From the NCBI GenBank assembly GCA_029855935.1, contig JAGSHN010000024.1, positions 1-61,586 of the forward strand: a stretch of 61,586 nt of DNA. Reading direction: 5' to 3'. The notes beneath the pieces were generated by a model. The model made no database searches. It was not told the DNA's origin and saw only the letters and a list, made by a program, of their open reading frames with translations. The translations under genes were made by a program, and so were the position numbers. Below, one piece after another: positions 47,577 through 61,586 of this stretch (the first letter of the stretch is position 1; each line of letters opens with the position of its first letter). The stretch is from Candidatus Thorarchaeota archaeon. Its GTDB lineage: Archaea > Asgardarchaeota > Thorarchaeia > Thorarchaeales > Thorarchaeaceae.

Positions 47577-49124
47577 TCACGCATTGAGAATCTCCTCGAG
47601 CTCTCCCGTCTTGCACATCGCTGGCGGCTTTCCCTGTTGGCCTCTCTCCCTGATTATGCTCTCATAGGTGTCCCAGTCCATCTCGCGGAGTTCGGTCGGA
47701 CCAATCGCACCTGTCTCCCTGACCACACGGAACTCCTCGTTTATGCTCTTCATTGCCTCCTCGAAGGTGCTGATGAACTCCTCTCTATCAAGATTAGAGC
47801 TGTCGTAGAAGCAGGCGTAGATGACGTAGTGTCCGATTCCGTCCTCGACGACGGTGGAGACGACGTAGCCCACCAGGGAAGTATCAGTCTTGGCCAGCGC
47901 TGCGGTCAGCGCACTCTCTATGTGGGCCTTGGAGACCTTCTCGCCAGACAGGTTGAGAACATGACCACGCCTGTCTACCGAGCGAATCGTCAGCGGGTCA
48001 GTACGAGCAACTGTCACTAGGTCGCCAATGCGGTATCTGTAGTATCCCTCTGCATTGGTGATCACCATCTCGTACCTCTTACCCGGCTTGAGGTCCGTTA
48101 TCGGTACGGTTTCCGGTTCGACCTCGTCGACCGACTCCACGGGGATGAACTCAAGGTAGTTGAGGTGAGGATACAGCTGCATGCCCTGTATGTCGCCGTA
48201 GAGCTGGCCTGCAAAGATGCCCTCTGAGGCGCCATAGACCTCGCGGATGTCAACCTGTGGAAACATCGCCTTTATCCATGGCCTGTAGGGCTCGGTGTTG
48301 ATGCCGGATGCAAGAAAGAACCTCACGTTCGGCCAGAGCCTACCGACGTCTATCCTGCCCTCGCTGTCCATCACGCTCCGCAGCCTGTCCTCGTACTTTG
48401 TCCCGGAGAATCTCTTCAAGAGCCACGGACCGAGGTCGTTCCGGACCCGACGTATCAGCATCATTGACAGTGAGGTGATTCCCTGAAAACCAGTCACGTT
48501 CTCCCTGACGAGGTACTCGGCATACGCGCGTACCTTGGCCTCCATATCCTGTATGTTGAATATGTCCTCTCCCGGTTTTATCAATCGCCTGAAGATGACA
48601 TTGGCCGTCTTGGCGTAGACTCCTGTCGCATATCCTACGCTGACGCCGTTTATCTCGTCTAGCTTTGAACTTGCACCAAAGGTTATCAGCGAGCCATCAA
48701 GAATCTTCGCATGCTCCGGGTCCTCTGCTATGTAGGACATCCAGACCATTGCGCTACCCGTGGACACATCTTTCAGGCCACGTTTGGTCACTGGCATTCT
48801 CTTCGGTCTGCCCGTACTGCCCGCGGTCTGCAGATAGTAGATTACCGGGTCCGCAGTCAGAACCCGTCCGCGGGGCTGCTGGTAGACCATCTCCAGATAC
48901 GGCTTCAACCTGACCGCATCAGTCAGGGGGACCTTCTGGGAATAGTCCTCGGGGCCCGTGATGCTGTCAAAGCCAAAGCGCCGTCCGTATATGGTGTCCC
49001 TGTTTCGGCGGAGAATCTCCATCAGCTTCTCTTGGGTCACCTCCCACGGGTGATCAAGGATGTACTCGTATTCTCGCATCTTCCTTGATGCCACCAGTGG
49101 GACTATGCGTCGCAACAATCCCAT
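47577..49124 (-). CDS. GH3-family acyl-adenylate/amido synthetase
   Basis: NRDTIYGRRFGF, TAGSTGRPK, YGASEG, YLEFIP, GYYRYRIGD, LSGEK. Confidence 0.92.
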   Translation of the reverse strand: MGLLRRIVPLVASRKMREYEYILDHPWEVTQEKLMEILRRNRDTIYGRRFGFDSITGPEDYSQKVPLTDAVRLKPYLEMVYQQPRGRVLTADPVIYYLQTAGSTGRPKRMPVTKRGLKDVSTGSAMVWMSYIAEDPEHAKILDGSLITFGASSKLDEINGVSVGYATGVYAKTANVIFRRLIKPGEDIFNIQDMEAKVRAYAEYLVRENVTGFQGITSLSMMLIRRVRNDLGPWLLKRFSGTKYEDRLRSVMDSEGRIDVGRLWPNVRFFLASGINTEPYRPWIKAMFPQVDIREVYGASEGIFAGQLYGDIQGMQLYPHLNYLEFIPVESVDEVEPETVPITDLKPGKRYEMVITNAEGYYRYRIGDLVTVARTDPLTIRSVDRRGHVLNLSGEKVSKAHIESALTAALAKTDTSLVGYVVSTVVEDGIGHYVIYACFYDSSNLDREEFISTFEEAMKSINEEFRVVRETGAIGPTELREMDWDTYESIIRERGQQGKPPAMCKTGELEEILNA

Positions 49125-49717
49125 TCTCTTGACCTCCGATACTGTTGGCCAGAACGGGGTTAGTCAGAATGGCATTGGCCTTTGCCACTCAGTGGCCAGG
49201 CTGGTGATAGCAGCGCTCTGTACGTTGTTGGTCCTATGGTTACTCTTTCTACCTTGCGGGGAGCAATGCGACCCGTTGTCTTTGTCATCATCTCTCTGGA
49301 ATTGAGTTCCGGAGAGGGACTGTAACTGTGCCCCTTGTCTTGAGGTAAATCCGTATTCTGACTCCCGCTCCAACCGCTACTGATCGTTCTCTTCTGAGTA
49401 TGTCTCGTGCACATTTACTGATATAAGCAATACGCCCTGTCCTTTTCTGAGAGCAGTCCTCAAGTGGCTAGACTCGTCACTCTGGGTCACGTTCTTCAGA
49501 TAGTGGGAACTCGGGTACACCTCTCATCTCGCGTCTTGGACACTGTTGCGATGGGGCTCACAACGGGCCAAATTCGGGCATCAGATTGGAATTTTCTCGG
49601 CTCATAATGCGTCGCAATGGGATTGTGCCGACGTGGGCCTCTGATTCAGGAGAAATTGGCCGCAGCGGGCCACTCTGGTCACGGCCCAAGACTGAATTTC
49701 TCTGTTGGCCCTTTGTC

Positions 49718-50494
49718 ATGATGGTGAGCAATGTGATCAGGAATCTGACGGAGCAGTTCTCAGAGGCGTGTGACTCCCAGCCCACCATTGCCGGGATGCT
49801 CGACGTGACGAACTACATGCAGGTGTCATTCAATAGTGAGGACTGGACAATCATCCGAGCAAGATTGGGGCGTCCGAGTGAGGGGAAGCGTGCGCCAATT
49901 CTTGTCCTGGTGATAGGCTTCCGCAGCGAGATGCTCCGTCCCTTTGGACAAGTCCGACTACGCTCTGGAGACTATCTCCCCTGCGACATCCCGGGACTAG
50001 TGCCGGGTCTGGCCGCGGTTGTCGATGGACGCCACAGAGGCTTGGTGGCGAATGCGCTGGTCCGGGGGGATGTCACACGAATGGTGCTGGTCTTCGAGGG
50101 CAAGGTGTCGCAGAGCTCACGCAAGGCACTTCGCTCGCTGGCAACGTCTGTGTATAGATTCTTCACCACGTGGAGAGAGTGGCGTCAGGTGCTGCTGGCC
50201 ACAGTGGAGCGAGATCCTGTTGTCAGTGAGTGGCCACTTGACTGGAGAGAGTTCCTTGCGGGTGAGAGCGGCTTTGTTGTTATGCCCTGGTTCAGGCCAA
50301 TGAGTTACTCAGAGCGCGCGACGGCAATGGACCGTGTTGTTCTTGCGGCGCGGGCTCTGCTTGCCTCTGTCCTCTCACAAGAAGGACTGGAGGACCCTCT
50401 CGTAGTCTCACTGCAGCGGTGGCTCGACGATCTGACGCCACTGCCTCAGGTGCTGTACGAGAGTCGCATTCTGGGGGAGGCTGAGGTTCAATGA
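49718..50494 (+). CDS. Hypothetical protein, first gene of the RadA/helicase operon
   Basis: Long ORF, start moved to ATG 49718; ATGA overlap with the next gene. Confidence 0.7.
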   Translation: MMVSNVIRNLTEQFSEACDSQPTIAGMLDVTNYMQVSFNSEDWTIIRARLGRPSEGKRAPILVLVIGFRSEMLRPFGQVRLRSGDYLPCDIPGLVPGLAAVVDGRHRGLVANALVRGDVTRMVLVFEGKVSQSSRKALRSLATSVYRFFTTWREWRQVLLATVERDPVVSEWPLDWREFLAGESGFVVMPWFRPMSYSERATAMDRVVLAARALLASVLSQEGLEDPLVVSLQRWLDDLTPLPQVLYESRILGEAEVQ

Positions 50495-50967
50495 TGACTG
50501 GCCAGATGATGATGGAGCAGCGGCCTTACGTCGATGTTGCCAATCAATTCTCCCAGGGCTGGCTCGGTGGAGCTGCCGCGGGTCTCATCAGCATACGGGG
50601 GTCCGTTGTGAGTCCGCGCTGGATGGACTTCATCGTTCGTGTCACGTCTGCCCTGAAGCGGAGCGGGCGGGTCTTCCCCGTCTGGCCTGGCGAGACGGTA
50701 TCCCCGCCCCGTGGTCAGCCAATCTCGATGTTCGATGCACTCGCAGGGTATGTGAGCCTCACGGGTCGGGTCCGTGATGGATGTCTAGTCTTCCCTGTCC
50801 CCGCACCCAGGGTCTCTGCAGTGCTCAACATGCTGGGCACCGGAACCGCAATGGGCACGGGAGCGAGAACTCTAGTTGTCGTAGACACCGAGTGTCTCTC
50901 TCAGGTGGTGGCCCTGTTACCAGTCGCTGGCCCTGTGAGAGACGATCTTGAGGAGGCGATGTCGTGA
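50491..50967 (+). CDS. Hypothetical protein, possible inactive RecA-fold protein
   Basis: GLISIRGS followed by a helix; later TLVVVD strand; coupled to radA by a GTGA overlap. Confidence 0.55.
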   Translation: MMTGQMMMEQRPYVDVANQFSQGWLGGAAAGLISIRGSVVSPRWMDFIVRVTSALKRSGRVFPVWPGETVSPPRGQPISMFDALAGYVSLTGRVRDGCLVFPVPAPRVSAVLNMLGTGTAMGTGARTLVVVDTECLSQVVALLPVAGPVRDDLEEAMS

Positions 50968-52031
50968 AGCCACTGGAGGAGGTCCGTGGCATAGGCCCCA
51001 CAATTGCTCGGAAGCTGAAGAACGCCTTCATAACAACGGCGGAGCTACTTGCCGTGCAGAACCCCGCAGAGCTACATCAGAAGACAGGTATTGCTGAGGG
51101 CACGGCAAAGAAGATCATCGCGAACGCCAGAGAGGCTCTCGGGCTTCAGGACTTCGTGCCTGGCCTGCAGGTCGAGAAGGAGATGATGGAGCAGCCCAAG
51201 CTGACAACTGGTGTACCAGCAATTGACCAGGCACTGATGGGCGGCATAGAGTCGGGTTCGATTGTCGAGTTCTACGGTCCCGCAAAGGCTGGCAAGACGC
51301 TGTGGTGCTCTCAGTTGGCGGTGAGAGTGCAACTGCCCTTCGAACAGGGTGGTCTTGAGGGGCGTGTACTGTGGCTAGACACAGAGAACGCCTTCAAGCC
51401 TTGGCAGATACGCGCTATGGCAAAGAGGTTCGGTCTGGATCCTGAGGCCGCGCTGGGGAACATCCGGAGGGCGAAGGTGATTCTCTCAGCGCAGATAATT
51501 GACATCTTTGAGTCGATCCCGCAGAGGTGCGCGGAGGAGGATGTCCGGCTTGTAGTCATCGACTCGCTTGTCGGCCTATTTCGTGCCGAGTATGTTGGCC
51601 TTGATCTGCTGCGGCTGAGGCAACAGGACCTCAATCGTCTACTGAACCTGATGCGAAGGACCTCTGCGGCAACGGGCGCGGTGTTTGTGTACACCAATCA
51701 GGTGATGGCCTCCATCGGCACATGGGGATCGAGCGGGATTGCTCCCGCGGGCGGACACATTCTCTCGCACGGCTCCGACTATCGCTTCAGGCTGACGGCG
51801 CGCAAGGATGACTTGCGTTCAATCACGCTTGTTGACAATGCTGGTGTGCCCGAGTTCTCCATTGTGCTTCGCGTCGGGTGGGGCGGCTTCTATCCAGACC
51901 CGAAGGAGAAGAAGAGCGCTGAGCCTGAGATACTCGAGTACCTGTCAGAGGCAGGATACAGATGGCGTAGTGTTGACGACAAGACCGAGCCTGCCAGGGC
52001 CAAGATTGAGTCAAAGGAGGTCCGGACATGA
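50964..52031 (+). CDS. RadA/Rad51-family recombinase paralog with N-terminal HhH domain
   Basis: RGIGPTIARKL, GPAKAGKT, LDTENAF, LVVIDS, FRAEYVG...RQQ, TNQV, GGHILSH. Confidence 0.92.
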   Translation: MKPLEEVRGIGPTIARKLKNAFITTAELLAVQNPAELHQKTGIAEGTAKKIIANAREALGLQDFVPGLQVEKEMMEQPKLTTGVPAIDQALMGGIESGSIVEFYGPAKAGKTLWCSQLAVRVQLPFEQGGLEGRVLWLDTENAFKPWQIRAMAKRFGLDPEAALGNIRRAKVILSAQIIDIFESIPQRCAEEDVRLVVIDSLVGLFRAEYVGLDLLRLRQQDLNRLLNLMRRTSAATGAVFVYTNQVMASIGTWGSSGIAPAGGHILSHGSDYRFRLTARKDDLRSITLVDNAGVPEFSIVLRVGWGGFYPDPKEKKSAEPEILEYLSEAGYRWRSVDDKTEPARAKIESKEVRT

Positions 52032-52486
52032 GCGGGCACGCTGGTCGCAACGAGCGCGGGATGTTCAGGGTCTATAGGTGCAGGTCATGTCGCCACGTTG
52101 GGTATGATAGAGTTGAGTCTGAGGAGGATACCACCCACTGCCCGCTGTGCGGTGCTGCTGTGGAGGACGACCCCTCGGTGGTCTACGTCGCGACACTGAG
52201 CGAGGCGGAGGATTTGATGCGCCAAATGGTCCTGACATCTAGATCGGTACATACCGCGAGGGCTGCCTTTCCGCGCAACCTCGGTGTCAAGAGGCGAGTT
52301 GAGAACATCATCCGCGACCTGATTGCTCTCAATCGAGGCCGTCCGGTCAGTCTCTCTGTCGTGCTTCAGGAGTGTTCGTATGCGGGTATTGCCCCTGAAC
52401 GGGCGGTGCGTTTTATGGCCGCACTTGAGGCTGAGGGCCGGATTCGTAATGATGGGCTGGTTGTAGAAGTAACGGAGGAGTGGTAG
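52028..52486 (+). CDS. Zn-ribbon plus winged-helix protein
   Basis: CRSC...CPLC; C-terminal wHTH-like ...FMAALEAEGRI. Confidence 0.72.
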   Translation: MSGHAGRNERGMFRVYRCRSCRHVGYDRVESEEDTTHCPLCGAAVEDDPSVVYVATLSEAEDLMRQMVLTSRSVHTARAAFPRNLGVKRRVENIIRDLIALNRGRPVSLSVVLQECSYAGIAPERAVRFMAALEAEGRIRNDGLVVEVTEEW

Positions 52487-52490
52487 TCAG

Positions 52491-53120
52491 ATGGTAGTGA
52501 GTGACAGCGCGGCTCCAGACACGCTGGCGGAACGCGGGCGCCACCGGAGGACCATTGCGGGAAAATCGTTGCTGAACCTCACGAATCTCCTGTTGCGACA
52601 GACCGACCATCGTGTCGTCACGCTGCAGCGAGATACAGAACCAGATCCCGAGATCTACGTTGTGACCCGGGTCGAGTGGAGGGACCCCAGTGTTCATCGC
52701 CCGGTCTTGCCCCAGCTACCGCGACTTCTGTCGGTGCTTGAGGCGCTCAGAGGTACTCAGGGAGTCCCCACTGAGATATACCTTGACAGCACGGAAGGCC
52801 TCACGGTCTATCTGAGGACTGGCGTTAGGCTCTCGGAGCTACCAGCCAGTTCGAGAGATGCTGTCGCGCTACTGACTGGGGTGGTACACCGCACAGTGTC
52901 TCATCTGTATTCCACGGTGCGTGATGTAGAGGAGTACTTCTGGATGGCGGCTCGGAGGCACGGTTTCAGTCCCGAGATTGTGGAGAAGATGGCGCTGGGA
53001 GTGAGGCACTTCGACTCTCCGGCGCTCCGACTGCGGTTCTCTGAGCTGATGCATTCCTACTTCTCAATCCGTTTCCGAATACATCGCGCAGAGGGCTGCC
53101 TCAGAGTCGAGGGAGGCTGA
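52491..53120 (+). CDS. Hypothetical protein
   Basis: 209-aa ORF inside the operon, with SD GGAGG. Confidence 0.7.
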   Translation: MVVSDSAAPDTLAERGRHRRTIAGKSLLNLTNLLLRQTDHRVVTLQRDTEPDPEIYVVTRVEWRDPSVHRPVLPQLPRLLSVLEALRGTQGVPTEIYLDSTEGLTVYLRTGVRLSELPASSRDAVALLTGVVHRTVSHLYSTVRDVEEYFWMAARRHGFSPEIVEKMALGVRHFDSPALRLRFSELMHSYFSIRFRIHRAEGCLRVEGG

Positions 53121-53127
53121 TCACACC

Positions 53128-55083
53128 GTGGCTGCGACGACGAGCGATCCGATGCGGTACTTTCCCTACGTGCCGAGGCCGCATCAGGACAGGGCCGTTC
53201 GTCTTGCGGCCAACGTGTTCTCACGTGGAGGCGTCGGCCTGTTGTCGGCAGACTGTGGTGTGGGCAAGACCATTGCAGTGTTGGCCGGTTACCTAGCAGC
53301 GAGAGCTGAACAGCCCGGGTCACGCCTGTTCATACTCACCAGAACACACTCTCAGACAAGTGTCTTCGAGTCGGAGATTGCCGTTCTTCGATCCTCCTAC
53401 GGTCACATCACCGCGACGTCCCTTGTGTCGAGAGCGCATATGTGCCCCATGCGGGAAATGATGGGAGAGACCTCCCTAGCTGGCTTTCTTCGGACATGCG
53501 CCCTATACATACGTTCCGGTAGGTGTTCGTACTTCTGGGACCTCTACAGAAGAGGTCCTGAGGGCCGTGTGCTCAGAGACGATGCGCGGGAACTGGTCGA
53601 CGAACTCCTCTCGGGCGGTGTAGTCACGCGTGCTGTAGTTGAGGCTGCCTCCGAGGACAATGCAGTCTGTCCCTATGAGCTTCTCCGCTGCGCTGCTCGC
53701 GAGAGCAGGATTGTCATCGGCCCCTACCCTTACCTCTTCAAGTCCACAGTCCGGCGCGCAACTCTGGCCTCATTGGGTATCACGCTGGACGACCTTGACA
53801 TAATAGTCGACGAGGCGCACAACCTCCCTGAACACGTTCTTGAGGCCGAGACCGCACGTCTCTCCGCTCACGATCTGCTGTGGCTGAGAGAGAACCTGGA
53901 TGATGTCTGCAAGATGACGGGCATCTCGTGGACGGGAGATGTCGTGGACTTCTTCTGGGAGTCGATGATGACGGCATTGGACCGGGTCGCGGACAGTTCG
54001 GAGATACGTCTTGAGAAGTGGGATGTGGCTCCTAGATTTGTGCAGCCTCGTGATCTTGACGCCCTGGCAGAATCGGCACGGCCAGACATCACCGACCCGG
54101 ACGGCGCGGTCAATGCCGAGACGCCGCTTGACCGGCTCATCGAGTTCCTCTATGCTGCACTCCACACGGTGCAGAGTGAGGACTGGCTTGTGACTCTCAA
54201 CATAGCTCCACATGGCGATGACACTCCGAAGTTTATGAGCGCCAGTCTGACTGTGCGGCCATTCAACGCGGCTGCCTTGGCTGGTCCTGTTCTCAGGGGT
54301 GCTCGAGCTGCGCTGTTAATGTCCGGCACCCTGAGACCTGTCAGGCACTACTCCACACTCCTCGGAATCCCTGACGCAGTGGCCGAGGAGCTGGCAAGTC
54401 CCTATCCTCAGGGGACGAGGATGGTCTTGGTCGACACGGTCCTCTCGACCAAATACCGCGAGCGGTCTGACGACCTCTGGAGACTCGTAGCGGAACGGAT
54501 TGGCGCAGTCCTCTCAACGGTCCCAGCGGAGAAGAGCGCGCTGATTGCCTTTCCCAGCTATGCAGTCATGCGCGAGGTGTTGGTGTATGCGCCCGACACA
54601 GGTTTTCGTACGCCTCTTGTTGAGTCACCTCGATCTCAGCTCGCTGAACTCGCTGACGCCATCGCAACGGGGCCTCACGCAATCTTCTGCGTCTATGGCG
54701 GAAAGTTCTCGGAGGGTGTGGACCTTGTCGAGAGCGGGTCGAGCATGATTGATGTCATTGTTGGTGTTGGTATACCTTTCTCTCCGCCGTCTTCGTATCA
54801 GCTCGCGCTCCAGAGGTGGCTGGATGAGAGGTTTGGGAGGGGCATGGGGTACTACTATGCCACGACTATTCCCTCGTTACGGAAGGTGACGCAGCTGATA
54901 GGACGGCTGCGCCGTTCCCCGTCGGACTGGGGGATTGTCGTGCTCATTGACAGACGATTCCTTCGTCATCTCTCGCTATTGGGCGAGGATGTGTATGCGG
55001 ATCTGTGGCCGTACTCCACGGTCGAGGAGTTGACTTACGCAATCGCCGAGTATCTTCGTCTGAAGGGGGCTGGTGCAATTTGA
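53128..55083 (+). CDS. XPD/Rad3/DinG-family Fe-S DNA helicase
   Basis: RPHQ, CGVGKT, four Fe-S Cys (MCP, RTC, RCSY, CPY), DEAH, MSGTL, SEGVD, QLIGR. Confidence 0.93.
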   Translation: MAATTSDPMRYFPYVPRPHQDRAVRLAANVFSRGGVGLLSADCGVGKTIAVLAGYLAARAEQPGSRLFILTRTHSQTSVFESEIAVLRSSYGHITATSLVSRAHMCPMREMMGETSLAGFLRTCALYIRSGRCSYFWDLYRRGPEGRVLRDDARELVDELLSGGVVTRAVVEAASEDNAVCPYELLRCAARESRIVIGPYPYLFKSTVRRATLASLGITLDDLDIIVDEAHNLPEHVLEAETARLSAHDLLWLRENLDDVCKMTGISWTGDVVDFFWESMMTALDRVADSSEIRLEKWDVAPRFVQPRDLDALAESARPDITDPDGAVNAETPLDRLIEFLYAALHTVQSEDWLVTLNIAPHGDDTPKFMSASLTVRPFNAAALAGPVLRGARAALLMSGTLRPVRHYSTLLGIPDAVAEELASPYPQGTRMVLVDTVLSTKYRERSDDLWRLVAERIGAVLSTVPAEKSALIAFPSYAVMREVLVYAPDTGFRTPLVESPRSQLAELADAIATGPHAIFCVYGGKFSEGVDLVESGSSMIDVIVGVGIPFSPPSSYQLALQRWLDERFGRGMGYYYATTIPSLRKVTQLIGRLRRSPSDWGIVVLIDRRFLRHLSLLGEDVYADLWPYSTVEELTYAIAEYLRLKGAGAI

Positions 55084-55673
55084 GATGGCGCGACAGCAGC
55101 TATACTGTCTACTATCTTCTTGGCGCGATTGTCACTGGTACGCTAGTCCGGCTCATACTGCTGGATCAGAGCATCGTCTCTGCAGCAATGGTCGCTGTCG
55201 CGGCGGTCCTCTCCACGGCAGTCGCATTGCTCATCCGGAGCGACTATTCTCCGGTCGTACTGTGGAATCCGCGTCTGAAGACGATGGCTGTGATTCGGCG
55301 CTGGTCGGTTGAGGTGAGCGCTGGTTGTCTCTTCTCCAGCGTCCCAATGGGGATTGACCTGAGCCGCAGCGCAAAGTTTCTCCTCAGAACACTTCACGGC
55401 CTCTTCGGGCGCGGCGAAAACTCGTCACTGCGATTCTTTGTAGTCCGTCCCCTCGGTGACGAGCCCACCCGCGTCGGGTTGATGCTGACTCGTCGTATGC
55501 TGTGTCTTGGCAACGTGACTTCAAAGGTCGCCAGTCTGGCAGAGACGGTCAGCAGGGAGCTCACTAGTCTGGAGAGCGCCGTCCGGTCGGTCTATCCTCA
55601 TACTCCTGTTGACATTGCGGATCGCGACGACCTCATACACGTCTATTCTGGAGGTGCGCCCAGTGCTGCCTGA
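55080..55673 (+). CDS. Membrane protein (2 TM plus alpha/beta domain; PrgI/VirB3-like position)
   Basis: TTG 55080 overlaps the XPD stop (TTGA); N-terminal TM hairpin. Confidence 0.68.
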   Translation: MRWRDSSYTVYYLLGAIVTGTLVRLILLDQSIVSAAMVAVAAVLSTAVALLIRSDYSPVVLWNPRLKTMAVIRRWSVEVSAGCLFSSVPMGIDLSRSAKFLLRTLHGLFGRGENSSLRFFVVRPLGDEPTRVGLMLTRRMLCLGNVTSKVASLAETVSRELTSLESAVRSVYPHTPVDIADRDDLIHVYSGGAPSAA

Positions 55674-55950
55674 GTGTCTGTCGTCTGCTCGCAGAATAGC
55701 CCTGCCCTCGGGGCTACGCACAGAGTCTGTGATGAGTCTGCTCAGGCGCTCTCTGTCGTATCACTGGCTGATTGTCCTTCGGACGCCGCAGCTGGTGGCA
55801 TACGGCCTGCCGCCACACGATGCTGTCTCGGCACTTGCGATTATCGGCAGGGATCTCTTCGTCATTCAAGACGATGGTGGCAGCACGATGTCCGCGTTGG
55901 CACGTCTGCTGGCCGCACTATCTGCATCGCAGGAGGTGAGTCAACGATGA
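55663..55950 (+). CDS. Small hypothetical protein
   Basis: GTG 55663 after GGAGGTG; the stop overlaps the next ATG (ATGA). Confidence 0.6.
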   Translation: MLPECLSSARRIALPSGLRTESVMSLLRRSLSYHWLIVLRTPQLVAYGLPPHDAVSALAIIGRDLFVIQDDGGSTMSALARLLAALSASQEVSQR

Positions 55951-58310
55951 CCAAGACCGTGATGGGCGCGAGTCCGGAGGTGGAGCCGGTTGAGCGGATG
56001 CTGAGGCGGTCAGAGGAGGCACCATCACGCGAGTATATACAGTGGGAGAACCGGAACAGACCTACAGGTCTGAGGGGCGTGCAGGCGCTCATCGGGCTCG
56101 CCCTTGTTGCCAGTGTGTTGTCACCGCCACTTGTCCTGATTGCCCTTGGAGTGTCTGCAGCCACCGTGGCTCTGCTCCGCTCAGGCCGCTCAAGGGCCAG
56201 AGGGACGTGGCGTGGACTGAACGGATGGAGGCGAATTCGACACCGGACGTCTCGATTGCGATACCATAGCACTCACGTCACCCTGCGGCGAGGCAGGTAC
56301 CTTGGCGGCGCCAGTCTGTCAGACGCAGCCCCCCATCTGTCTGGAAGACTGAGTGGACTGCTGCGGGCACTGTCGTCGCGCCACGGGTTTGCTCTTCTGG
56401 TCGAGCTGTCACCAGAGAGTGCAATCGGCCTGGATCCATCTGCACTGACCGAGTGGCAGGCTGAACATCTGCCCGGGTCTGAACGACAGCTGGAGTCACT
56501 GTTCTGGCGTCACGGATGTCTCTGGAGTGCGAGGGCCGTGATCTTGGCCCATGGACGGACCGAGCAATACGTGTCCACCACCCTAGACATTGCACTTGGC
56601 GCCCTAGGTGATGCAAATTGGGCGCGTCTTGACGGTCGTTCCCTGATGAGGAGGTATTGCAGACTGGACCTGCTCCCCGAATCGTCATTCTATGCCACAG
56701 GCGAAGAGCTCTCAGGATGGCTTGTACAATTGGCCAGCGAGCTATCCTCTGATCTTGGCAGCAACGTACCCGGGGAGTTTCTGACGCCAGCAAAGGTCGA
56801 GAAGTGTGATTACGTCCTTGGCAGAATCATCGACCCGGAGACTCTGCGACTTGGACCTGAGACCGGGCTGACCGACAAGGACCTTCAGGGTGGAGTATGG
56901 ATCGCTGGTGGGACGGATGTTGTGCGGAGAGAGGTGCTTGCGAGAGTCGTCTGCAGGCTGCTGGAGAGGGGCCAGAGAGTGGTGTACATCGCTACAGACT
57001 CGGCCGCAGGTGCCATCGCTTCCCTCGCCAGAGAGGCTGCGGTCTTGCAGCTCGGGCACAACCTGATATTGAACCCCGTCGACCCGGATGGCCTCCCTGC
57101 GAACAGATATGCTGTGCTCCTCCTGCGGGCGCTTGAGGGACTTCTTGAGCGTGACCGCCCGCGGGGCGACCTTGAAGGGGCTGTCGAGCTTGAGATGGCT
57201 CTTGCGCGAGCGATCTCGAGAAAGGATGCGACCCTCGCCGATGTATCTATTGACACTGCCGCTCTCAGCCCGACCGACTCCAGCTCTGGGGCTGGACCGC
57301 CCCGCCAGTCGAGCCCGTCGATGTATCGTTCGATGCTTGGTCTCACACTCGTAGAGGAGCTGTACAAAGGCAGTGCTGCGTCCGCATTCTACGGTAGCCA
57401 GACGCTCAGCGCCGAGGAGATGGCCTCAGGTGATCTCACAGTCATCACCCTACCTCTACCAACACGCGAGCTCCAGCGATTCGCTCTGGATCTTCTGCTT
57501 CTCAAGCTCAGTGGTGTTCCGCGTGACGACGCTCTTGTAGTTGTCGTGGAGAACGCCCACAACTTTGCTGGCAGGGAGTCTTGGTCACTTGCCCTCGTTG
57601 ACAGGCTGTTCCGTCGAGGACCGCTCATCCTCGGAACGGAAGCATTGTCCAAGATGCCAGACGTACTCCGCGGTCGTTTCTGCTCAGCCGGTGTTCTCCA
57701 GATGAGCGATTCATCGGACATCAGGGCAGCCGCGGACCTCCTCGGTCTGGGTGTCATAGCGACAGGTCTGCATAGCAAGAGTCGAAGTTCTCTGCGAGAG
57801 ACCTCGTTTCTGCGGACGATGGGACAAGACACCGTTCTCCTCAGGTCCGGTTCGCGTAGGCTGGCTGTGGCCGTCCGATTGTCGCCGGCTCCAGAACTGG
57901 AGAGTCGCCCGCTCTCTGATGTTCAGTCCACTGCGCGTCAGACCGAGTCAGTACGGCGAGATGATCGTGTCAGAGGAGATCGCTCTCTCACGTTGATCGA
58001 GGAGGTCGCCGGGCGTCAGGCCTCCCTTGCTGCCAGGATACTGCGGCTGCTGGAGAGATACGAGCCTCTCACGGTACGTGCGCTGGAGCAGTTTCTTGCG
58101 GCCAGTGAGGACAGCTCACCAGCCAGCTCCGCATCCGCCCCCGACGGTGAGGTGGACAGCGTGATAACACGTCTTGAACGCGCGAGTCTTGTGTTGCGTG
58201 GACACGAGGTCCACGGCAATGTCTCGTACACCAACTATCGCCTGACGATGAAGGGGCGGCTGGCTCTCAGACAGACGGAACAGGAGGAGAGGGAGGGACT
58301 AGCGGAGTGA
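55947..58310 (+). CDS. Membrane-anchored HerA/VirB4-like protein with degenerate Walker motifs and C-terminal winged helix
   Basis: Start after GGAGGTGA; TM hairpin; LGRIID...L..KDLQGGVWIAGGT, LILNP, VVVVENAHNF. Confidence 0.72.
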   Translation: MTKTVMGASPEVEPVERMLRRSEEAPSREYIQWENRNRPTGLRGVQALIGLALVASVLSPPLVLIALGVSAATVALLRSGRSRARGTWRGLNGWRRIRHRTSRLRYHSTHVTLRRGRYLGGASLSDAAPHLSGRLSGLLRALSSRHGFALLVELSPESAIGLDPSALTEWQAEHLPGSERQLESLFWRHGCLWSARAVILAHGRTEQYVSTTLDIALGALGDANWARLDGRSLMRRYCRLDLLPESSFYATGEELSGWLVQLASELSSDLGSNVPGEFLTPAKVEKCDYVLGRIIDPETLRLGPETGLTDKDLQGGVWIAGGTDVVRREVLARVVCRLLERGQRVVYIATDSAAGAIASLAREAAVLQLGHNLILNPVDPDGLPANRYAVLLLRALEGLLERDRPRGDLEGAVELEMALARAISRKDATLADVSIDTAALSPTDSSSGAGPPRQSSPSMYRSMLGLTLVEELYKGSAASAFYGSQTLSAEEMASGDLTVITLPLPTRELQRFALDLLLLKLSGVPRDDALVVVVENAHNFAGRESWSLALVDRLFRRGPLILGTEALSKMPDVLRGRFCSAGVLQMSDSSDIRAAADLLGLGVIATGLHSKSRSSLRETSFLRTMGQDTVLLRSGSRRLAVAVRLSPAPELESRPLSDVQSTARQTESVRRDDRVRGDRSLTLIEEVAGRQASLAARILRLLERYEPLTVRALEQFLAASEDSSPASSASAPDGEVDSVITRLERASLVLRGHEVHGNVSYTNYRLTMKGRLALRQTEQEEREGLAE

Positions 58311-60532
58311 CAGTGGCCGCGATCAAATCAGAGGTCCTCGACCTTCTCTCATCGGCTTCGTTGGAGCCGCGGGGAGTCCAGAGAGAGGCGATTGAGAGAG
58401 GCCTACTAGAGGGTGCCAGCCTAATGGTCTGCAGTCCGACAGGCTCGGGGAAGACTCTTGTTGGCGAGATGGCGGCTCTACGTGCCGTACTGTCTGGGGA
58501 GCGCGCCCTCTATCTCGTGCCCCTTCGTGCCCTCGCGGCCCAAGTCAGTTCGGTGATGAGGGAGCGCTACCAGGCCCGCGGAGTCCGAGTGGGCGTCACA
58601 ACGGGCGACTTTCAGACGGACGCTGAGTATCTTGCGGATGCCGAGATTATTGTGACAACCTTCGAGCGCGCGGACTCTCTGATGCGCCGTCGGGCACCTT
58701 GGCTCGACGAGGTCGGCACGGTGGTCGTTGATGAGGTCCAGACGATTGGAGAGCGCGGTAGGGGTGCCCGCCTTGAGTCGGTCCTGATGCGTCTGAGGAG
58801 ACTGCTGCCAGAGGTCCAGATCGTTGCACTGTCGGCGACAATAGGCGCTCCTGAGGAACTGGCTGAATGGCTTGGTTGCGACCTGATAGTTTCTGAGCAG
58901 CGTCCGGTGCCACTGCACTACTCAATCGTTCCCACTCGTGACAAGGTGCAGACGTTGAGAAACATCGTCCTTGCGACGGTACGCGCGGACGGCCAGTCAA
59001 TAGTCTTCGCAAGGACGCGGCGTGATGCAGAGAGCTTGGCCTCGCATCTTGCCCCTGAGATCGGACGGCATATGACATCAGCGGAACAGCGTGAGGTGAG
59101 CTCGGAGCTCGACTCTGTTGAGAACTGGTATGTCTCGCCGCCAAGGGCTCTTCGCGGTCTGTTGCATCACGGTGTCGCCTTTCATCACGCGGGCCTGTCC
59201 TATTCTGTCAGAGATCTGATTGAGCGGCTCTTCCGACGCGGGCTGCTTCGCGTTGTCTTCGCGACGTCGACGCTCTCCGCCGGAGTTGACTTTCCGGCAC
59301 GGACGGTCATTGTGACCGATGTCCGTTCACCTTCAGATCACCGGACTCTGATATCCGCGAACCAGCTTCATCAGATGCTCGGCCGAGCAGGCCGCCCCGG
59401 TCACGATACCATGGGGATGGGCATCGTACTAGTGGGAAGCAAGGGCGAGGCTGAGACGGTGCGTGACAGGTACTTCGACGTCATGGAGGACGCTGAGACT
59501 GGCGAAACAGTTCTGTTTCCACGGTACGACCGCGTGAACAGCGTCTTGAGCGACCCGGAGGCTCTGACCGAACAGGTTCTCGTCGCTCTGGCCACACTGG
59601 GAGAGTCTAGTCCCCAGAAACTGGTTGACGAGTATTTCAGCGACTCCTTTCTCTCATTCTGCAGCGTCCGGGACTCGAGAGCGCCAGCGAGGGTGCTGCC
59701 GATAGATGCCGTGGACGCGCGCGTGGCAATGGAGTGCAGGGCCTTCTCGGACACCGTGAGAGCCGCCAGCGAAGGGGTTCTAGGACATGCGACAATCCGC
59801 GAGAAGACGGAGACGACCATTGGCGGAATCGTTCGGGACTGGGACGGCAACCAGCACACATGCCGCTTCTCGTCTAGGACCGACGCTACTGGTCTGGTGG
59901 AGGGTCCGATGTGTTCCTGTGGCCAGCCCGTGGACAGACACGGGATACTCTGCCCCCATCTTGTCTGTCTTGGTATCACAGCCGCAACAGAGCTAGGCTC
60001 GTTGGCCGACTATGTGGTCCCACTTTCTCTTGATGTGACCAGTCCCGTGCAGGTGCTGGTGCGGCTGGGGCTGATTGAGGGTGCAGAGGGGAATGCGCTC
60101 AGAGCAACGCGTCTCGGTCGACTTGTGTGCCGGTTGTATCTCAGAATCTCGACCACGCGAGAGATGCTCGCTCTGCTGCCCCTGGTTGACAATGGTCAGG
60201 ACGTGGTAAGTCTTCTACGACACTTGGTCTCGCTGGAGATGGGGGCGAGACTACCCGACTCGTTCGAGTCGTTCATCGCGGGCCTGGCCTCGACAGGTAT
60301 TCCCCTCTCGAAGCTTGCTGCAGATGCGGAGATTGATGAGGGTGATGCCCTCGGTCTGGTGGACGCGTCGCGCTGGCTGCTCTCGGCCATGGCTGCAGTT
60401 GCGGACCACGGGGGCCTCGATACAGCTCGCGAGATCATCCAGTCGCTTCTGGTCGCGCTGGATGGTCGTAGTGAGGCATTTGGCAAGACAGTTGACGGAG
60501 AGTGTGAAACAGATGGCAATACTGAGCCGTGA
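58307..60532 (+). CDS. Ski2/Hel308-like SF2 helicase with inserted SWIM Zn finger
   Basis: PTGSGKT, DEVQ, SAT, FHHAGL, LSAGVDFPA, QMLGRAGRPG; CSC-x10-CPH; ATRLGRL. Confidence 0.92.
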   Translation: MTVAAIKSEVLDLLSSASLEPRGVQREAIERGLLEGASLMVCSPTGSGKTLVGEMAALRAVLSGERALYLVPLRALAAQVSSVMRERYQARGVRVGVTTGDFQTDAEYLADAEIIVTTFERADSLMRRRAPWLDEVGTVVVDEVQTIGERGRGARLESVLMRLRRLLPEVQIVALSATIGAPEELAEWLGCDLIVSEQRPVPLHYSIVPTRDKVQTLRNIVLATVRADGQSIVFARTRRDAESLASHLAPEIGRHMTSAEQREVSSELDSVENWYVSPPRALRGLLHHGVAFHHAGLSYSVRDLIERLFRRGLLRVVFATSTLSAGVDFPARTVIVTDVRSPSDHRTLISANQLHQMLGRAGRPGHDTMGMGIVLVGSKGEAETVRDRYFDVMEDAETGETVLFPRYDRVNSVLSDPEALTEQVLVALATLGESSPQKLVDEYFSDSFLSFCSVRDSRAPARVLPIDAVDARVAMECRAFSDTVRAASEGVLGHATIREKTETTIGGIVRDWDGNQHTCRFSSRTDATGLVEGPMCSCGQPVDRHGILCPHLVCLGITAATELGSLADYVVPLSLDVTSPVQVLVRLGLIEGAEGNALRATRLGRLVCRLYLRISTTREMLALLPLVDNGQDVVSLLRHLVSLEMGARLPDSFESFIAGLASTGIPLSKLAADAEIDEGDALGLVDASRWLLSAMAAVADHGGLDTAREIIQSLLVALDGRSEAFGKTVDGECETDGNTEP

Positions 60533-61586
60533 CGATGATGATGTTGGAGAGATGATGCCCCTTGCGGGTAGCGAGAAGAGCCACGATGTGGCCCGTGTTC
60601 TCCTCGACAGTGGGCACAGAGTGGCACAGCTGCCCAATGGCGTGACATTGGGTGTGCGGCTTGAGGGAATTCCGTACTCCTGCGGCGTTCACGTTGATGT
60701 GGTCTTCGTGGTCGACCTTCGTCGAGCGCGATTCGGAAGAGGCCCATTCGCTATGAAGACTGCTCTATGGCCGATTGTCACGCAGCGCCTTGACAGCCTC
60801 CTAGAACACGTCGCCCTCTCGGATGTGCTCAAGACGCGAACGATTCTCACTCAGCGCGGGAGGATCTCGTTTGACGTCCTGGAGCATCCAGACGGTCGCA
60901 GTACGTCCTTCATCCACGAAACCCGCACAATATACGTCGTCACAGGTGACCTGCGACCGACAGTTGACCTGTCCTGGCTGACGAGGCCGAGTCGTGTGGT
61001 CACGGCAGAGGAGTTTCCTCTCGTCCGTGCGAGCGACATTCGCGCCTCACGACCAGTCCTTGAAGAGGTGGTTGACGCCGAGAAGTGGGAGGACCTTGAG
61101 TCCCTAATACGATCGACTTGGATCTCGATCTTTCTCACCGGGCTGGCTGCTCTGCTATTCCTGAGCTACGCCGTGGGCCTTGGTTCGACGTCACTCCTCG
61201 TACACGGACCACTAATCATCGCGGCTGCGGGCCTAGCTGTCGTGGTGGTGTGGCTGCAGCTCAGAGCTGGTCGGCTGTTCAGGGCCTTTGTCGAGACCAC
61301 AGAGCGTGAGATCAGAGCGCTCCAGAGGTCTGATGACGTTGGGATTGTCGAACGCCACTTCAGCGAGGCCGGCGATGCACTACGTATCCTGGAGAGCCTG
61401 CAGATCAGAGTACCTCCGCTCCTTATCTCCGCAGCCGAGGCTCTCCGTTCCCATGATTGCAATGTTGCTGTGCAGCTCGCATCTGCCATCCTTGACGACT
61501 GCGTGACGCTCTCGACCTTTGGCGTTGTTTCCGATGACGAGTTTGCCACAGCTGACACGGGACTGGGCGTCTTCCTCGGGCTCTTC
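60513..61586 (+). CDS. Membrane protein (partial; runs off right edge)
   Basis: Not in the ORF track. Manual translation from ATG 60513 (MAILSRDDDDVGEMM...) is open to the window end, with two central TM helices (WISIFLTGLAALLFLSYAV; PLIIAAAGLAVVVVWL). Confidence 0.72.
   Translation, partial: MAILSRDDDDVGEMMPLAGSEKSHDVARVLLDSGHRVAQLPNGVTLGVRLEGIPYSCGVHVDVVFVVDLRRARFGRGPFAMKTALWPIVTQRLDSLLEHVALSDVLKTRTILTQRGRISFDVLEHPDGRSTSFIHETRTIYVVTGDLRPTVDLSWLTRPSRVVTAEEFPLVRASDIRASRPVLEEVVDAEKWEDLESLIRSTWISIFLTGLAALLFLSYAVGLGSTSLLVHGPLIIAAAGLAVVVVWLQLRAGRLFRAFVETTEREIRALQRSDDVGIVERHFSEAGDALRILESLQIRVPPLLISAAEALRSHDCNVAVQLASAILDDCVTLSTFGVVSDDEFATADTGLGVFLGLF

Follow-up and report, generated by a model that had tools for sequence, protein, structure and literature searches.

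We found that the window, which is the whole 61,586-nt stretch of DNA analysed here and one entire contig of a Thorarchaeota genome assembled from a hydrothermal-vent metagenome, ends in the first 11 genes of an undescribed 15-gene operon that points to a machine handling DNA at the cell membrane. Because of the tight translational coupling of the genes, the collinearity of all 15, their single copy, their conserved flanks and the extra paralogs of recombination enzymes among them, we read the operon, with even confidence, as encoding one membrane-anchored homologous-recombination machine. The sequence-only reading had proposed a membrane-tethered machine for DNA uptake or exchange and recombination. 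Membrane-tethered recombination with its own recombinase fits our results, and uptake or exchange was not borne out, as neither a channel nor a pilin nor an active translocase was recognised; imported DNA would be one of several conceivable substrates. A full-text literature search turned up no account of the operon, in line with the earlier statement that the gene combination was not recognised as a described system.

All 11 co-oriented ORFs proposed at the outset are present (Table 1), and the original count of at least 11 genes turned out to cover the first part of a row that continues past the window. The window's end shares 27 exact bases with the end of contig C4 of the same genome (G000), which adds g12 to g15 after the remainder of g11 (G000:C4:185347-184871, minus strand). 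The genes overlap by four bases at g01/g02 (ATGA), g02/g03 (GTGA), g03/g04 (ATGA), g06/g07 (TTGA), g08/g09 (ATGA) and g09/g10 (GTGA), by 11 bases at g07/g08 and by 20 bases at g10/g11, and are separated by four bases at g04/g05 and seven at g05/g06, which matches the ATGA, GTGA and TTGA overlaps, short overlaps and gaps of at most 7 bp described before. Motifs of GGAGG/GAGG type were located within 20 nt upstream of nine of the ten internal starts, as expected from the mostly GGAGG Shine-Dalgarno motifs reported earlier. Among the data sets listed as matching the operon or the XPD gene none was RNA, the only one being the probable source metagenome.

Table 1 Features of the operon and its upstream flank (positions in the window)
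Feature	Position	Strand	Description	Basis
GH3	47577..49124	-	GH3-family adenylating enzyme; conserved neighbour, membership uncertain	Pfam GH3 N, M and C domains
GH3 to g01	49125..49717	.	presumed promoter region	sole gap >50 bp in gene row
g01	49718..50494	+	258 aa, no recognised family	orthologs 26-56% identity, same position
g02	50491..50967	+	158 aa, no recognised family, poorly conserved	26-32% identity to orthologs
g03	50964..52031	+	full-length RadA paralog, HhH domain and RecA core, 355 aa	Pfam, NCBIfam, tree
g04	52028..52486	+	Zn-ribbon (CxxC-x16-CxxC) and probable C-terminal winged helix	four invariant Cys, 17 sequences
g05	52491..53120	+	209 aa, Thorarchaeia-specific, confidently predicted fold	AF2 pLDDT 84, pTM 0.76
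g06	53128..55083	+	XPD/Rad3-type Fe-S helicase paralog, 651 aa	Pfam DEAD_2, Helicase_C_2, HBB
g07	55080..55673	+	N-terminal TM hairpin and ~140-aa cytoplasmic domain	hydropathy
g08	55663..55950	+	about 95 aa, small soluble, poorly conserved	beneath over-long ORF call; weak orthologs, 23-30% identity, same place
g09	55947..58310	+	787 aa: TM hairpin, alpha/beta N-domain, VirB4/HerA-fold core without P-loop, C-terminal winged helix	AF2
g10	58307..60532	+	Hel308/Hjm-like SF2 helicase paralog with SWIM-type CxC-x10-CxH insert, 741 aa	PDB Hjm match
g11	60513..61586, cut by contig end	+	507 aa in full: N-domain, central TM hairpin, helical acidic C-terminal region	orthologs, hydropathy

Gene-neighbourhood comparison found all 15 genes in one and the same order in 45 species-level Thorarchaeota loci, where contigs reach far enough, and the order is also kept in a second Thorarchaeia family (f2). 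In most genomes of family f1, the operon is single-copy and occupies a fixed chromosomal site. Since neither g09 nor g05 was found in four of five re-examined genomes of the family, which are 90-93% complete, the operon may be dispensable. Four other Asgard families carry a reduced core, consisting of SWIM-Hel308, a split pseudo-VirB4, the Zn-ribbon protein, a RecA-like protein and the RadA paralog. These observations bear on the explanation that the row is a co-regulated 'super-operon' of independent functions, co-transcribed for example after DNA damage, whose membrane proteins and enzymes do not form one machine. Co-transcription by itself is no proof of one complex, seven of the 15 proteins (g01, g02, g05, g07, g08, g11 and g13) have no assigned function, and the membrane proteins carry no recognisable DNA-handling domains save the winged helix of g09. 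We nevertheless consider a collection of independent functions quite unlikely, as the gene order is frozen in two families, the overlaps alternate membrane and enzyme genes (g06/g07, g08/g09, g09/g10 and g10/g11), and the mixed set of pseudo-VirB4, SWIM-Hel308 and RecA-like genes persists in distant Asgard families despite rearrangement.

The flanks of the operon are also conserved. The GH3 ortholog was located directly upstream and divergent in 23 Thorarchaeota loci, and was co-oriented with the operon in the second family (G025); a convergent gene with no recognised identity is another conserved neighbour. A gene pair encoding a 200-aa multi-TM membrane protein and a 2671-aa Ig/filamin/MG2 surface protein is linked to the operon: in six family-f1 genomes it lies 2-3 kb downstream, and in family f2 it is found within the operon itself. 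An SbcCD/Mre11-Rad50-like pair was observed 3-4 kb upstream of the operon in three genomes. No relatives of g09 were found in PLSDB plasmids, INPHARED phages or IMG/VR contigs, which together with the conserved chromosomal flanks speaks against a mobile-element origin, including the provirus or conjugative element that had been named as a counter-test.

The RadA, XPD, Hel308 and FEN1 of the operon are additional, faster-evolving paralogs, and housekeeping copies of all four are encoded elsewhere in the genome; their catalytic motifs are kept in 28-40 orthologs. The conserved synteny, the further copies of the recombination enzymes and the chromosomal setting, the three points at which the sequence-only reading had exposed itself to refutation, therefore all came out in its favour. 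The proposed RadA paralog g03 scored 174.9 bits with Pfam Rad51 (cut-off 22) and 36.5 bits with HHH_5, and 270.4 bits with NF003301 against a cut-off of 259, compared with 324.5 bits for the housekeeping RadA on contig C16; it stayed below the cut-off of TIGR02236 (249 versus 361). Its Walker A motif, GP[AS][RK]GGKT, is conserved among orthologs, and its clade is separate from housekeeping RadA with 95/93 support and long branches, which agrees with a divergent but genuine member of the RadA/Rad51 family. The assignment of g06 as an Fe-S XPD helicase was likewise upheld, with DEAD_2 and Helicase_C_2 passing their cut-offs at 70.7 and 82.5 bits and with the Walker A motif, the DEAH box and the four cysteines kept in 39 orthologs; the housekeeping XPD (C14:151697-153382) is merely 26% identical to it.

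The helicase g10, previously described as SWIM-Hel308-like, matched the PDB structure of Hjm (2zj2) with an E value of 4.5e-75 over residues 24-451, and 40 orthologs keep its motifs I, II and VI together with the Cys/His insert. It remained far under the cut-offs of the NCBIfam Hel308 equivalogs (368 versus 887 and 302 versus 1200), and for C-terminal domain 4 the only detection came from a homolog of another lineage. The CxC-x10-CxH insert, to which the Pfam SWIM model gave no match at E <= 0.01, is present in six cluster-linked paralogs of other lineages, with five other Asgard lineages represented, and is absent from the genome's own Hel308 copies on contigs C17 and C13. On sequence grounds, this SWIM-like insert sets g10 apart as a paralog clade of its own. 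The FEN1-like g15 on contig C4 matched human FEN1 (E 6.5e-22), and the seven active-site carboxylates D34, D86, E158, E160, D179, D181 and D233 all align to identical residues; XPG_I reached 66.8 bits in the G003 ortholog. A C-terminal PIP-like motif, Qxx[L]xx[WF]x, is kept in 28 orthologs of g15, and such a tail points to a putative coupling with PCNA-dependent DNA synthesis. In three loci with an apparent fusion, a stop codon separates g14 and g15.

Among the remaining soluble proteins, g12 is RecA-like with a GKT motif and g14 is RecA-like without a P-loop, both on contig C4. An all-versus-all hhalign comparison of the 15 families linked the three RecA-type families alone, the very strong g03-g14 score being inflated by RadA hits that contaminated the g14 set. 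The suggestion that g02 may be an inactive RecA fold was not supported, as its hhalign probability was below 30% against these three families and no RecA relation was detectable. Complex prediction for g12, g14 and the soluble domain of g13 gave a score of 0.00 with a poorly folded partner and has no weight either way. For g04, claimed as a Zn-ribbon-winged-helix protein, the Zn ribbon was confirmed by the four invariant cysteines and weak Zn-ribbon Pfam hits, and the winged helix is probable from the amino acid sequence; a g04 relative adjoins the SWIM-Hel308 gene in another Asgard family. g01 had no match in Pfam, NCBIfam, PADLOC or PDB sequences, and its language-model look-alikes were limited to weak GAF-like leads (0.76-0.80). 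g05 is present in 44 of 57 genomes and in the single genome of two Thorarchaeia families, respectively, and was not found among some 210 Asgard genomes outside these families. Its predicted fold had no clear counterpart in the PDB (best Z 5.6; Foldseek E >= 0.39) or the ESM Atlas (TM <= 0.44), and it had no language-model look-alikes. Profile searches against PDB sequences returned nothing usable for g01, g05 or g11.

The AF2 model of g09 (pLDDT 79) showed that the protein has the fold of a VirB4-type ATPase, as the earlier label of a TM-HerA/VirB4-like protein implied. Its best structural match was VirB4 (4ag5_B; Z 28.8, rmsd 2.6 A over 322 residues), followed by DndH-C (Z 25.5), HerA (Z 25.2) and TrwB (Z 23.2), and hydropathy places its TM segments at residues 40-69, a predicted membrane anchor. 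Weak PadR/HTH_34 hits were found at the C-terminus of its homologs. The Walker A motif is replaced by GGTxxxRR in 44 aligned family members, the pattern [AG]x4GK[ST] is absent from nine further members, and the Walker B motif of the family is degenerate. An active ATPase is therefore not expected, and judged by these motif states the VirB4-like protein cannot serve as a motor.

Hydropathy predicted two TM segments each in g07, g09 and g11 (residues 198-246 in g11) and about four in g13 on contig C4, which bears out the 2-TM proteins of the earlier description, g07 and g11. Where g09 homologs of other Asgard lineages are split, the g07 HMM matches their stand-alone N-terminal halves (E 1e-5 to 3e-4), and these halves match the g09 HMM too; by these profile matches, g07 is distantly paralogous to the N-terminal module of g09. 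The start of g11 agrees with its orthologs (MAIL...), and no family or PDB match was found for it, Pfam giving only scattered chance hits on 17 orthologs. No link among g07, g11 and g13 was found in the all-versus-all hhalign comparison. The mass of the membrane proteins is predicted by hydropathy to be almost wholly cytoplasmic, and their TM parts, being for the most part plain hairpins, may do no more than anchor them.

The closest parallels are the DNA-import systems Ced of Sulfolobales and Ted of Thermoproteales, which are domesticated type IV secretion systems, and in the Ted loci HerA and Rad50 genes are neighbours of VirB4-, VirB6- and VirB2-like genes (PMC9905601). Like Ced and Ted, the Thorarchaeota operon is chromosomal and vertically kept, and has small TM-hairpin proteins next to a VirB4-fold protein that is associated with the membrane; as in Ted, homologous-recombination genes are in the neighbourhood, but in Thorarchaeota they are dedicated paralogs inside the operon. 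The Ced/Ted ATPase (CedB/TedB) powers translocation, whereas g09 has the fold and no Walker A. Ced and Ted also have a VirB6/CedA-like channel of 6-7 TM segments and a VirB2/CedA1-like pilin. By TM counts, no such channel was recognised in the operon, and no VirB2-like pilin was recognised either; the operon has no small protein consisting only of a TM hairpin, the hairpin of g07 being joined to its soluble domain.

The archaeal herA-mre11-rad50-nurA end-resection operon shares a protein of the HerA/FtsK-superfamily fold and recombination enzymes with the Thorarchaeota operon, near which the Mre11/Rad50-like pair is also found in some genomes. In contrast to HerA, g09 is a membrane-anchored protein with a dead ATPase, and five ordinary genes of the DUF87/HerA type are found at other places in the genome; the partners of g09 are RadA paralogs, XPD, Hel308 and FEN1, and Pfam detected neither NurA nor any nuclease besides g15 in the operon. 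Metazoan HELQ with the RAD51 paralogs, and the complexes of the SWIM protein SWS1/Shu2 with RAD51 paralogs, offer a functional analogy: in the operon the gene of a Hel308-family helicase is tied to those of RecA/Rad51-like mediators, and a SWIM-type CxC-xn-CxH motif occurs in the system, here as an insert within the helicase itself. The bacterial competence set (ComFA helicase, DprA, RecA, RadA/Sms and ComM) shares the concept of membrane helicases and mediators acting on incoming DNA, but homology is limited to the RecA and SF2 superfamilies and no ComEC-like channel was recognised in the operon.

Helicases and a nuclease at the membrane could also attack invading DNA, and HerA-fold proteins are known in defence systems (Sir2-HerA and DUF4297-HerA). 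The PADLOC model for HamB of Hachiman matched g10 and that for type IV DinG matched g06; these matches are generic, however, the housekeeping XPD beating g06 on the DinG model (336 versus 267 bits). No HamA, Cas/Csf, Sir2, DUF4297 or other effector partner was found in the operon by Pfam and PADLOC, a full-length recombinase with mediators is no hallmark of defence, and the fixed, collinear, single-copy locus is unlike patchy defence islands. An anti-virus or anti-plasmid role is thus very unlikely, and the known anti-phage systems (Hachiman, type IV CRISPR DinG, Sir2/DUF4297-HerA) were rejected as assignments, having yielded generic helicase matches only.

Maintenance of the cell's own chromosome, by fork repair or restart or by chromosome resolution or segregation at a membrane site with no DNA crossing the envelope, has more in its favour. 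Hel308 family members act at stalled forks, g15 keeps its catalytic residues and a PIP-like motif that implies PCNA-coupled synthesis, and the SbcCD/Mre11-Rad50-like pair lies nearby in three genomes. Nearly all the protein mass is predicted to be cytoplasmic, no channel was recognised, and the VirB4-like protein is not a motor. Housekeeping RadA, XPD, Hel308 and FEN1 are nevertheless present, and a second complete set therefore needs a special substrate; the VirB4-type ancestry and the linkage to a giant surface protein are unexpected for purely internal repair. On balance, we regard such a role as unlikely.

For the membrane-anchored recombination machine that we favour, the physical assembly, the order of action and the substrate are what we infer. 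g09, a VirB4-type protein that has lost nucleotide binding, would sit at the membrane on its cytoplasmic side as a ring or scaffold, working with its part-paralog g07, the hairpin protein g11 and the 4-TM g13, and DNA would be held by the winged-helix tails of g09 and g04. The enzymes recruited to this platform would constitute a private recombination toolkit. XPD and Hel308 families have opposite polarity, 5'-3' and 3'-5', respectively, and the two paralogs could together open or remodel DNA. The RadA paralog g03 would form the filament, with the RecA-like ATPase g12, the P-loop-less g14 and the Zn-ribbon g04 as mediators, and g15 would trim flaps together with PCNA through its PIP-like tail. 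The helicases and RecA-type ATPases would have to supply the energy in place of g09. The process may be coupled to the cell surface, as the linked 200-aa membrane and 2671-aa surface proteins suggest, and because of these two proteins our leading guess for the substrate is DNA arriving at, or exchanged across, the envelope.

Asgard archaea are the closest known relatives of eukaryotes, and the operon bears on the question of how recombination specialised into separate recombinases, Rad51 paralogs, HELQ-type helicases and eventually sex. A published survey placed the Rad51/DMC1 duplication later than the split between eukaryotes and known Asgard archaea, and noted a second RadA clade in some Asgard lineages, with Thorarchaeota unmentioned (PMC12722695). 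A far-reaching version of our reading, which we regard as doubtful, is an Asgard-wide, chromosomally inherited apparatus for DNA exchange in which giant surface proteins would make cell contact, DNA would cross the membrane at a passive ring derived from a type IV secretion VirB4, SWIM-Hel308 and XPD would pull and process it, and the RadA paralog would integrate it with Rad51-paralog-like mediators and a PCNA-bound flap nuclease, as a prokaryotic forerunner of a 'meiotic-style' toolkit. Thorarchaeota keep a complete second recombination toolkit, encoded together with membrane and surface proteins, and its reduced core is spread over Asgard lineages. The operon yields several proteins with apparently unassigned folds, its family-wide 'dead' VirB4 would be a new kind of scaffold, and as a whole it offers a specific candidate, open to testing, for DNA exchange or for recombination coupled to the envelope in Asgard archaea.

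All 11 co-oriented open reading frames that the sequence-only reading had placed between position 49,718 and the contig end were recovered by checking the reading frames and their junctions, and the junctions it described were exact: six gene pairs overlap by 4 nt, one by 11 nt and one by 20 nt, and the other two are separated by 4 and 7 nt. Its Shine-Dalgarno-like motifs (GGAGG or GAGG) likewise precede nine of the ten internal starts. The operon extends past the window, which is the entire contig C10 (61,586 bases) of a 2.97-Mb genome, G000, that is 97% complete. C10 ends in 27 bases that match the reverse-complemented end of contig C4 exactly; on C4, the remainder of g11 is followed by g12, g13, g14 and g15 (operon genes are numbered g01 to g15 in order). 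In several genomes, g14 and g15 are in frame with each other, with one stop codon and about four codons between them. A hydrothermal-vent metagenome was the sole sequencing run containing the window DNA.

Features of the operon and of related loci (L, fetched loci, with coordinates internal to each locus)
Feature	Location	Strand	Description
Rad50/SbcC-like and Mre11/SbcD-like pair	window 44285-46667	-	short ABC ATPase (433 aa; AAA_23, SMC_N) and phosphoesterase (357 aa); 3 kb upstream of operon
g12	contig C4		RecA-like protein, Walker A GLPATGKT
g13	contig C4		about 4 predicted TM helices; start position uncertain
g14	contig C4		RecA-like, without P-loop; start position uncertain
g15	contig C4		FEN1-like nuclease
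g14/g15 stop codon and spacer	L017 18179-18193		
Convergent protein, 646 aa	L021 4291-6231 = G000:C4:179638-181578	+	adjoins operon end
Multi-TM protein, 200 aa	G000:C4, L099 15553-16155	-	precedes 2671-aa protein
Surface-type protein, 2671 aa	G000:C4, L099 7537-15552	-	Big_1, Big_3_5, filamin, MG2, prenyltransferase-like alpha-alpha-toroid; N-terminal hydrophobic segment
Housekeeping XPD, 681 aa	within L098, G000:C14:150000-157000		
RadB-like RecA-family gene	C14:154325-154918		
Distant g09-like protein and its neighbour	L067 10001-14931		847 aa, without P-loop, then directly 794 aa, weak HerA_C match

In the six fetched 20-kb loci and 45 species-level public loci, the 15 genes were collinear wherever the contig was long enough. 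The largest operon protein, g09, was present in a single copy per genome in 18 of 24 sampled same-family genomes and in 53 of 85 in a wider sample, many of the negative genomes being incomplete, and the relatives retrieved with it were nearly all labelled Thorarchaeota. A genome from the second family of the same order, G025, carries the genes for RadA, the Zn-ribbon protein, g05, XPD, two small ORFs, g09, Hel308 and g11 in identical order. A divergent GH3-family gene lies 5' of the operon in 23 loci, and a convergent gene of unassigned family lies 3' in 29 Thorarchaeota loci, where the orthologs (387-646 aa, 22-29% identity) occupy the same site; its product may act as a regulator or be an additional component. 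The operon is surrounded by ordinary chromosomal genes, and g09-like sequences were absent from the plasmids, phages and IMG/VR contigs searched. The g05 gene was found in 45 of 58 genomes of the two Thorarchaeia families and in none of about 210 other Asgard genomes; its confidently predicted fold (pLDDT 84) had no clear counterpart in the PDB or ESM Atlas.

Judged from their sequences, the operon enzymes are spare copies that have been kept working. The housekeeping RadA of G000 scores 324.5 bits on Pfam Rad51 versus 175.9 for g03, the operon RadA, and the housekeeping XPD and Hel308 are 26% and 36% identical to g06 and g10; the housekeeping FEN1 is 25% identical to the ortholog of g15 used as query (from G003, another genome). 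In a maximum-likelihood tree, the housekeeping RadAs grouped together (support 64/99), and the operon RadAs of both families formed a separate group (95/93) with terminal branches about tenfold longer. Across 28-40 orthologs, RadA keeps its Walker A; XPD its Walker A, its DEAH box and each of the four Fe-S cysteines; Hel308 its motifs I, II and VI; and g12 its GKT. All seven FEN1 active-site carboxylates of g15 align to identical residues, and the conserved C-terminal Qxx[L]xx[WF]x of the FEN1 paralog is a putative PCNA-interacting peptide. The housekeeping XPD gene lies about 0.8 kb 5' of a RadB-like gene, so a helicase is paired with a RecA paralog at that locus too. PADLOC suggested Hachiman HamB or type IV DinG, which we rejected as generic matches, the housekeeping XPD outscoring the operon copy on the same DinG model; that the operon is a defence system is very improbable.

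The g09 protein had no match in Pfam, NCBIfam or PADLOC, and when 1.84 billion representative proteins were searched with its profile, only about 200 relatives emerged. Its AlphaFold model (pLDDT 79) has a TM hairpin at the N-terminus, then an alpha/beta domain and a core (residues 279-651), and a winged helix at the C-terminus. For the core, the C-terminal domain of VirB4 is the best match (Z 28.8, rmsd 2.6 A, 322 residues), followed by DndH-C (Z 25.5), HerA (Z 25.2) and TrwB (Z 23.2). That g09 is a pseudo-ATPase had been noted earlier and was borne out, and the loss of Walker A proved to be family-wide: GGTxxxRR occupies the strand-loop-helix expected to hold Walker A in 44 of 44 aligned members, and [AG]x4GK[ST] is absent from the entire sequence of nine more distant relatives. 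The Thorarchaeota proteins also have a degenerate Walker B. By its sequence, g07 is a distant paralog of the g09 N-terminal module; other Asgard lineages have a split g09, whose N-terminal half matches both the g07 and g09 HMMs. From hydropathy, g07, g09 and g11 are each predicted to have a TM hairpin and g13 about four helices, with nearly all their remaining mass on a single, presumably cytoplasmic, side of the membrane. The two adjacent proteins of the distant metagenomic relative may be an inactive/active HerA-superfamily pair. A subfamily of g09 relatives of about 1230-1340 aa (in L068-L070 and in genomes of family f9) is encoded in a cluster of another kind, together with an HHH_5 protein of 678-686 aa, small ORFs and a protein of 1203 aa, adjoining a SWIM-type Hel308 paralog in divergent orientation.

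In four other Asgard families, a g09 homolog lies near a Hel308 paralog, a g04-like Zn-ribbon protein, a g12-like RecA protein and a lower-scoring RadA paralog. The linked Hel308 paralogs score 477-564 bits on the g10 HMM versus 359 for the housekeeping Hel308 of G000, and each has a CxC-xn-CxH insert at the equivalent position, which is absent from the housekeeping copies of G000. XPD, FEN1, g05, g01 and g02 were not detected in the four clusters fetched from these families. The gene order is frozen, membrane genes alternate with enzyme genes through 4-nt overlaps, and the mixed core recurs in distant lineages, all of which favours one machine over chance proximity. That the genes are only co-regulated is a less likely, rather improbable, explanation.

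Among described systems, Ced and Ted come closest, the operon sharing with them a VirB4-fold membrane protein and the nearness of recombination genes. The operon differs in lacking their active ATPase feature, and no VirB6-like channel or VirB2-like pilin was recognised in it. A herA-nurA-mre11-rad50 operon was ruled out by the dead ATPase and the lack of NurA. An SbcCD/Mre11-Rad50-like pair lies 3-4 kb 5' of the operon in G000 and two other genomes, the Mre11-like gene being so placed in G003 and G012; in the genomes G025, G005 and G007 that gene was elsewhere or not found with this query. Resemblances to HELQ with RAD51 paralogs and to SWIM-protein complexes are analogies only. A full-text literature search found no paper describing the operon, and a 2025 study on RadA paralogs in Asgard archaea makes no mention of Thorarchaeota (PMC12722695).

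Beyond the convergent gene, on the operon strand, lie genes for a multi-TM protein and a giant protein whose domains (Ig-like, filamin, MG2, alpha-alpha-toroid) recall alpha-2-macroglobulin-like surface proteins. The 200-aa gene lies 2-3 kb 3' of g15 in five other genomes, and in G025 the orthologous pair is located inside the operon, with g11 on one side and the RecA-like genes on the other; the pair is thus linked to the operon in two families at differing positions. Our preferred reading, at about even odds, is that the operon encodes a membrane-anchored homologous-recombination machine. The specific claim that its substrate is DNA arriving at or crossing the envelope is tentative; VirB4 ancestry, membrane anchoring, the dedicated recombinase, the linked giant surface protein and the precedent of VirB4-type genes beside recombination genes at Ted loci (PMC9905601) favour it. 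Action on the cell's own chromosome is possible at a similarly low level of confidence, and is favoured by the missing channel and pilin, the dead VirB4-like ATPase, the predicted cytoplasmic bulk of protein and the PIP motif. In a membrane-anchored recombination machine, the nucleotide-blind VirB4-type protein would serve as the scaffold at the membrane, helicases and RecA-type ATPases would supply the power, and a private recombinase would act with mediators and a PCNA-linked flap nuclease. Because the reduced core recurs in four other Asgard families, the Thorarchaeota operon appears to have been built up from an older Asgard module by the addition of XPD, FEN1, g05, g01 and g02.
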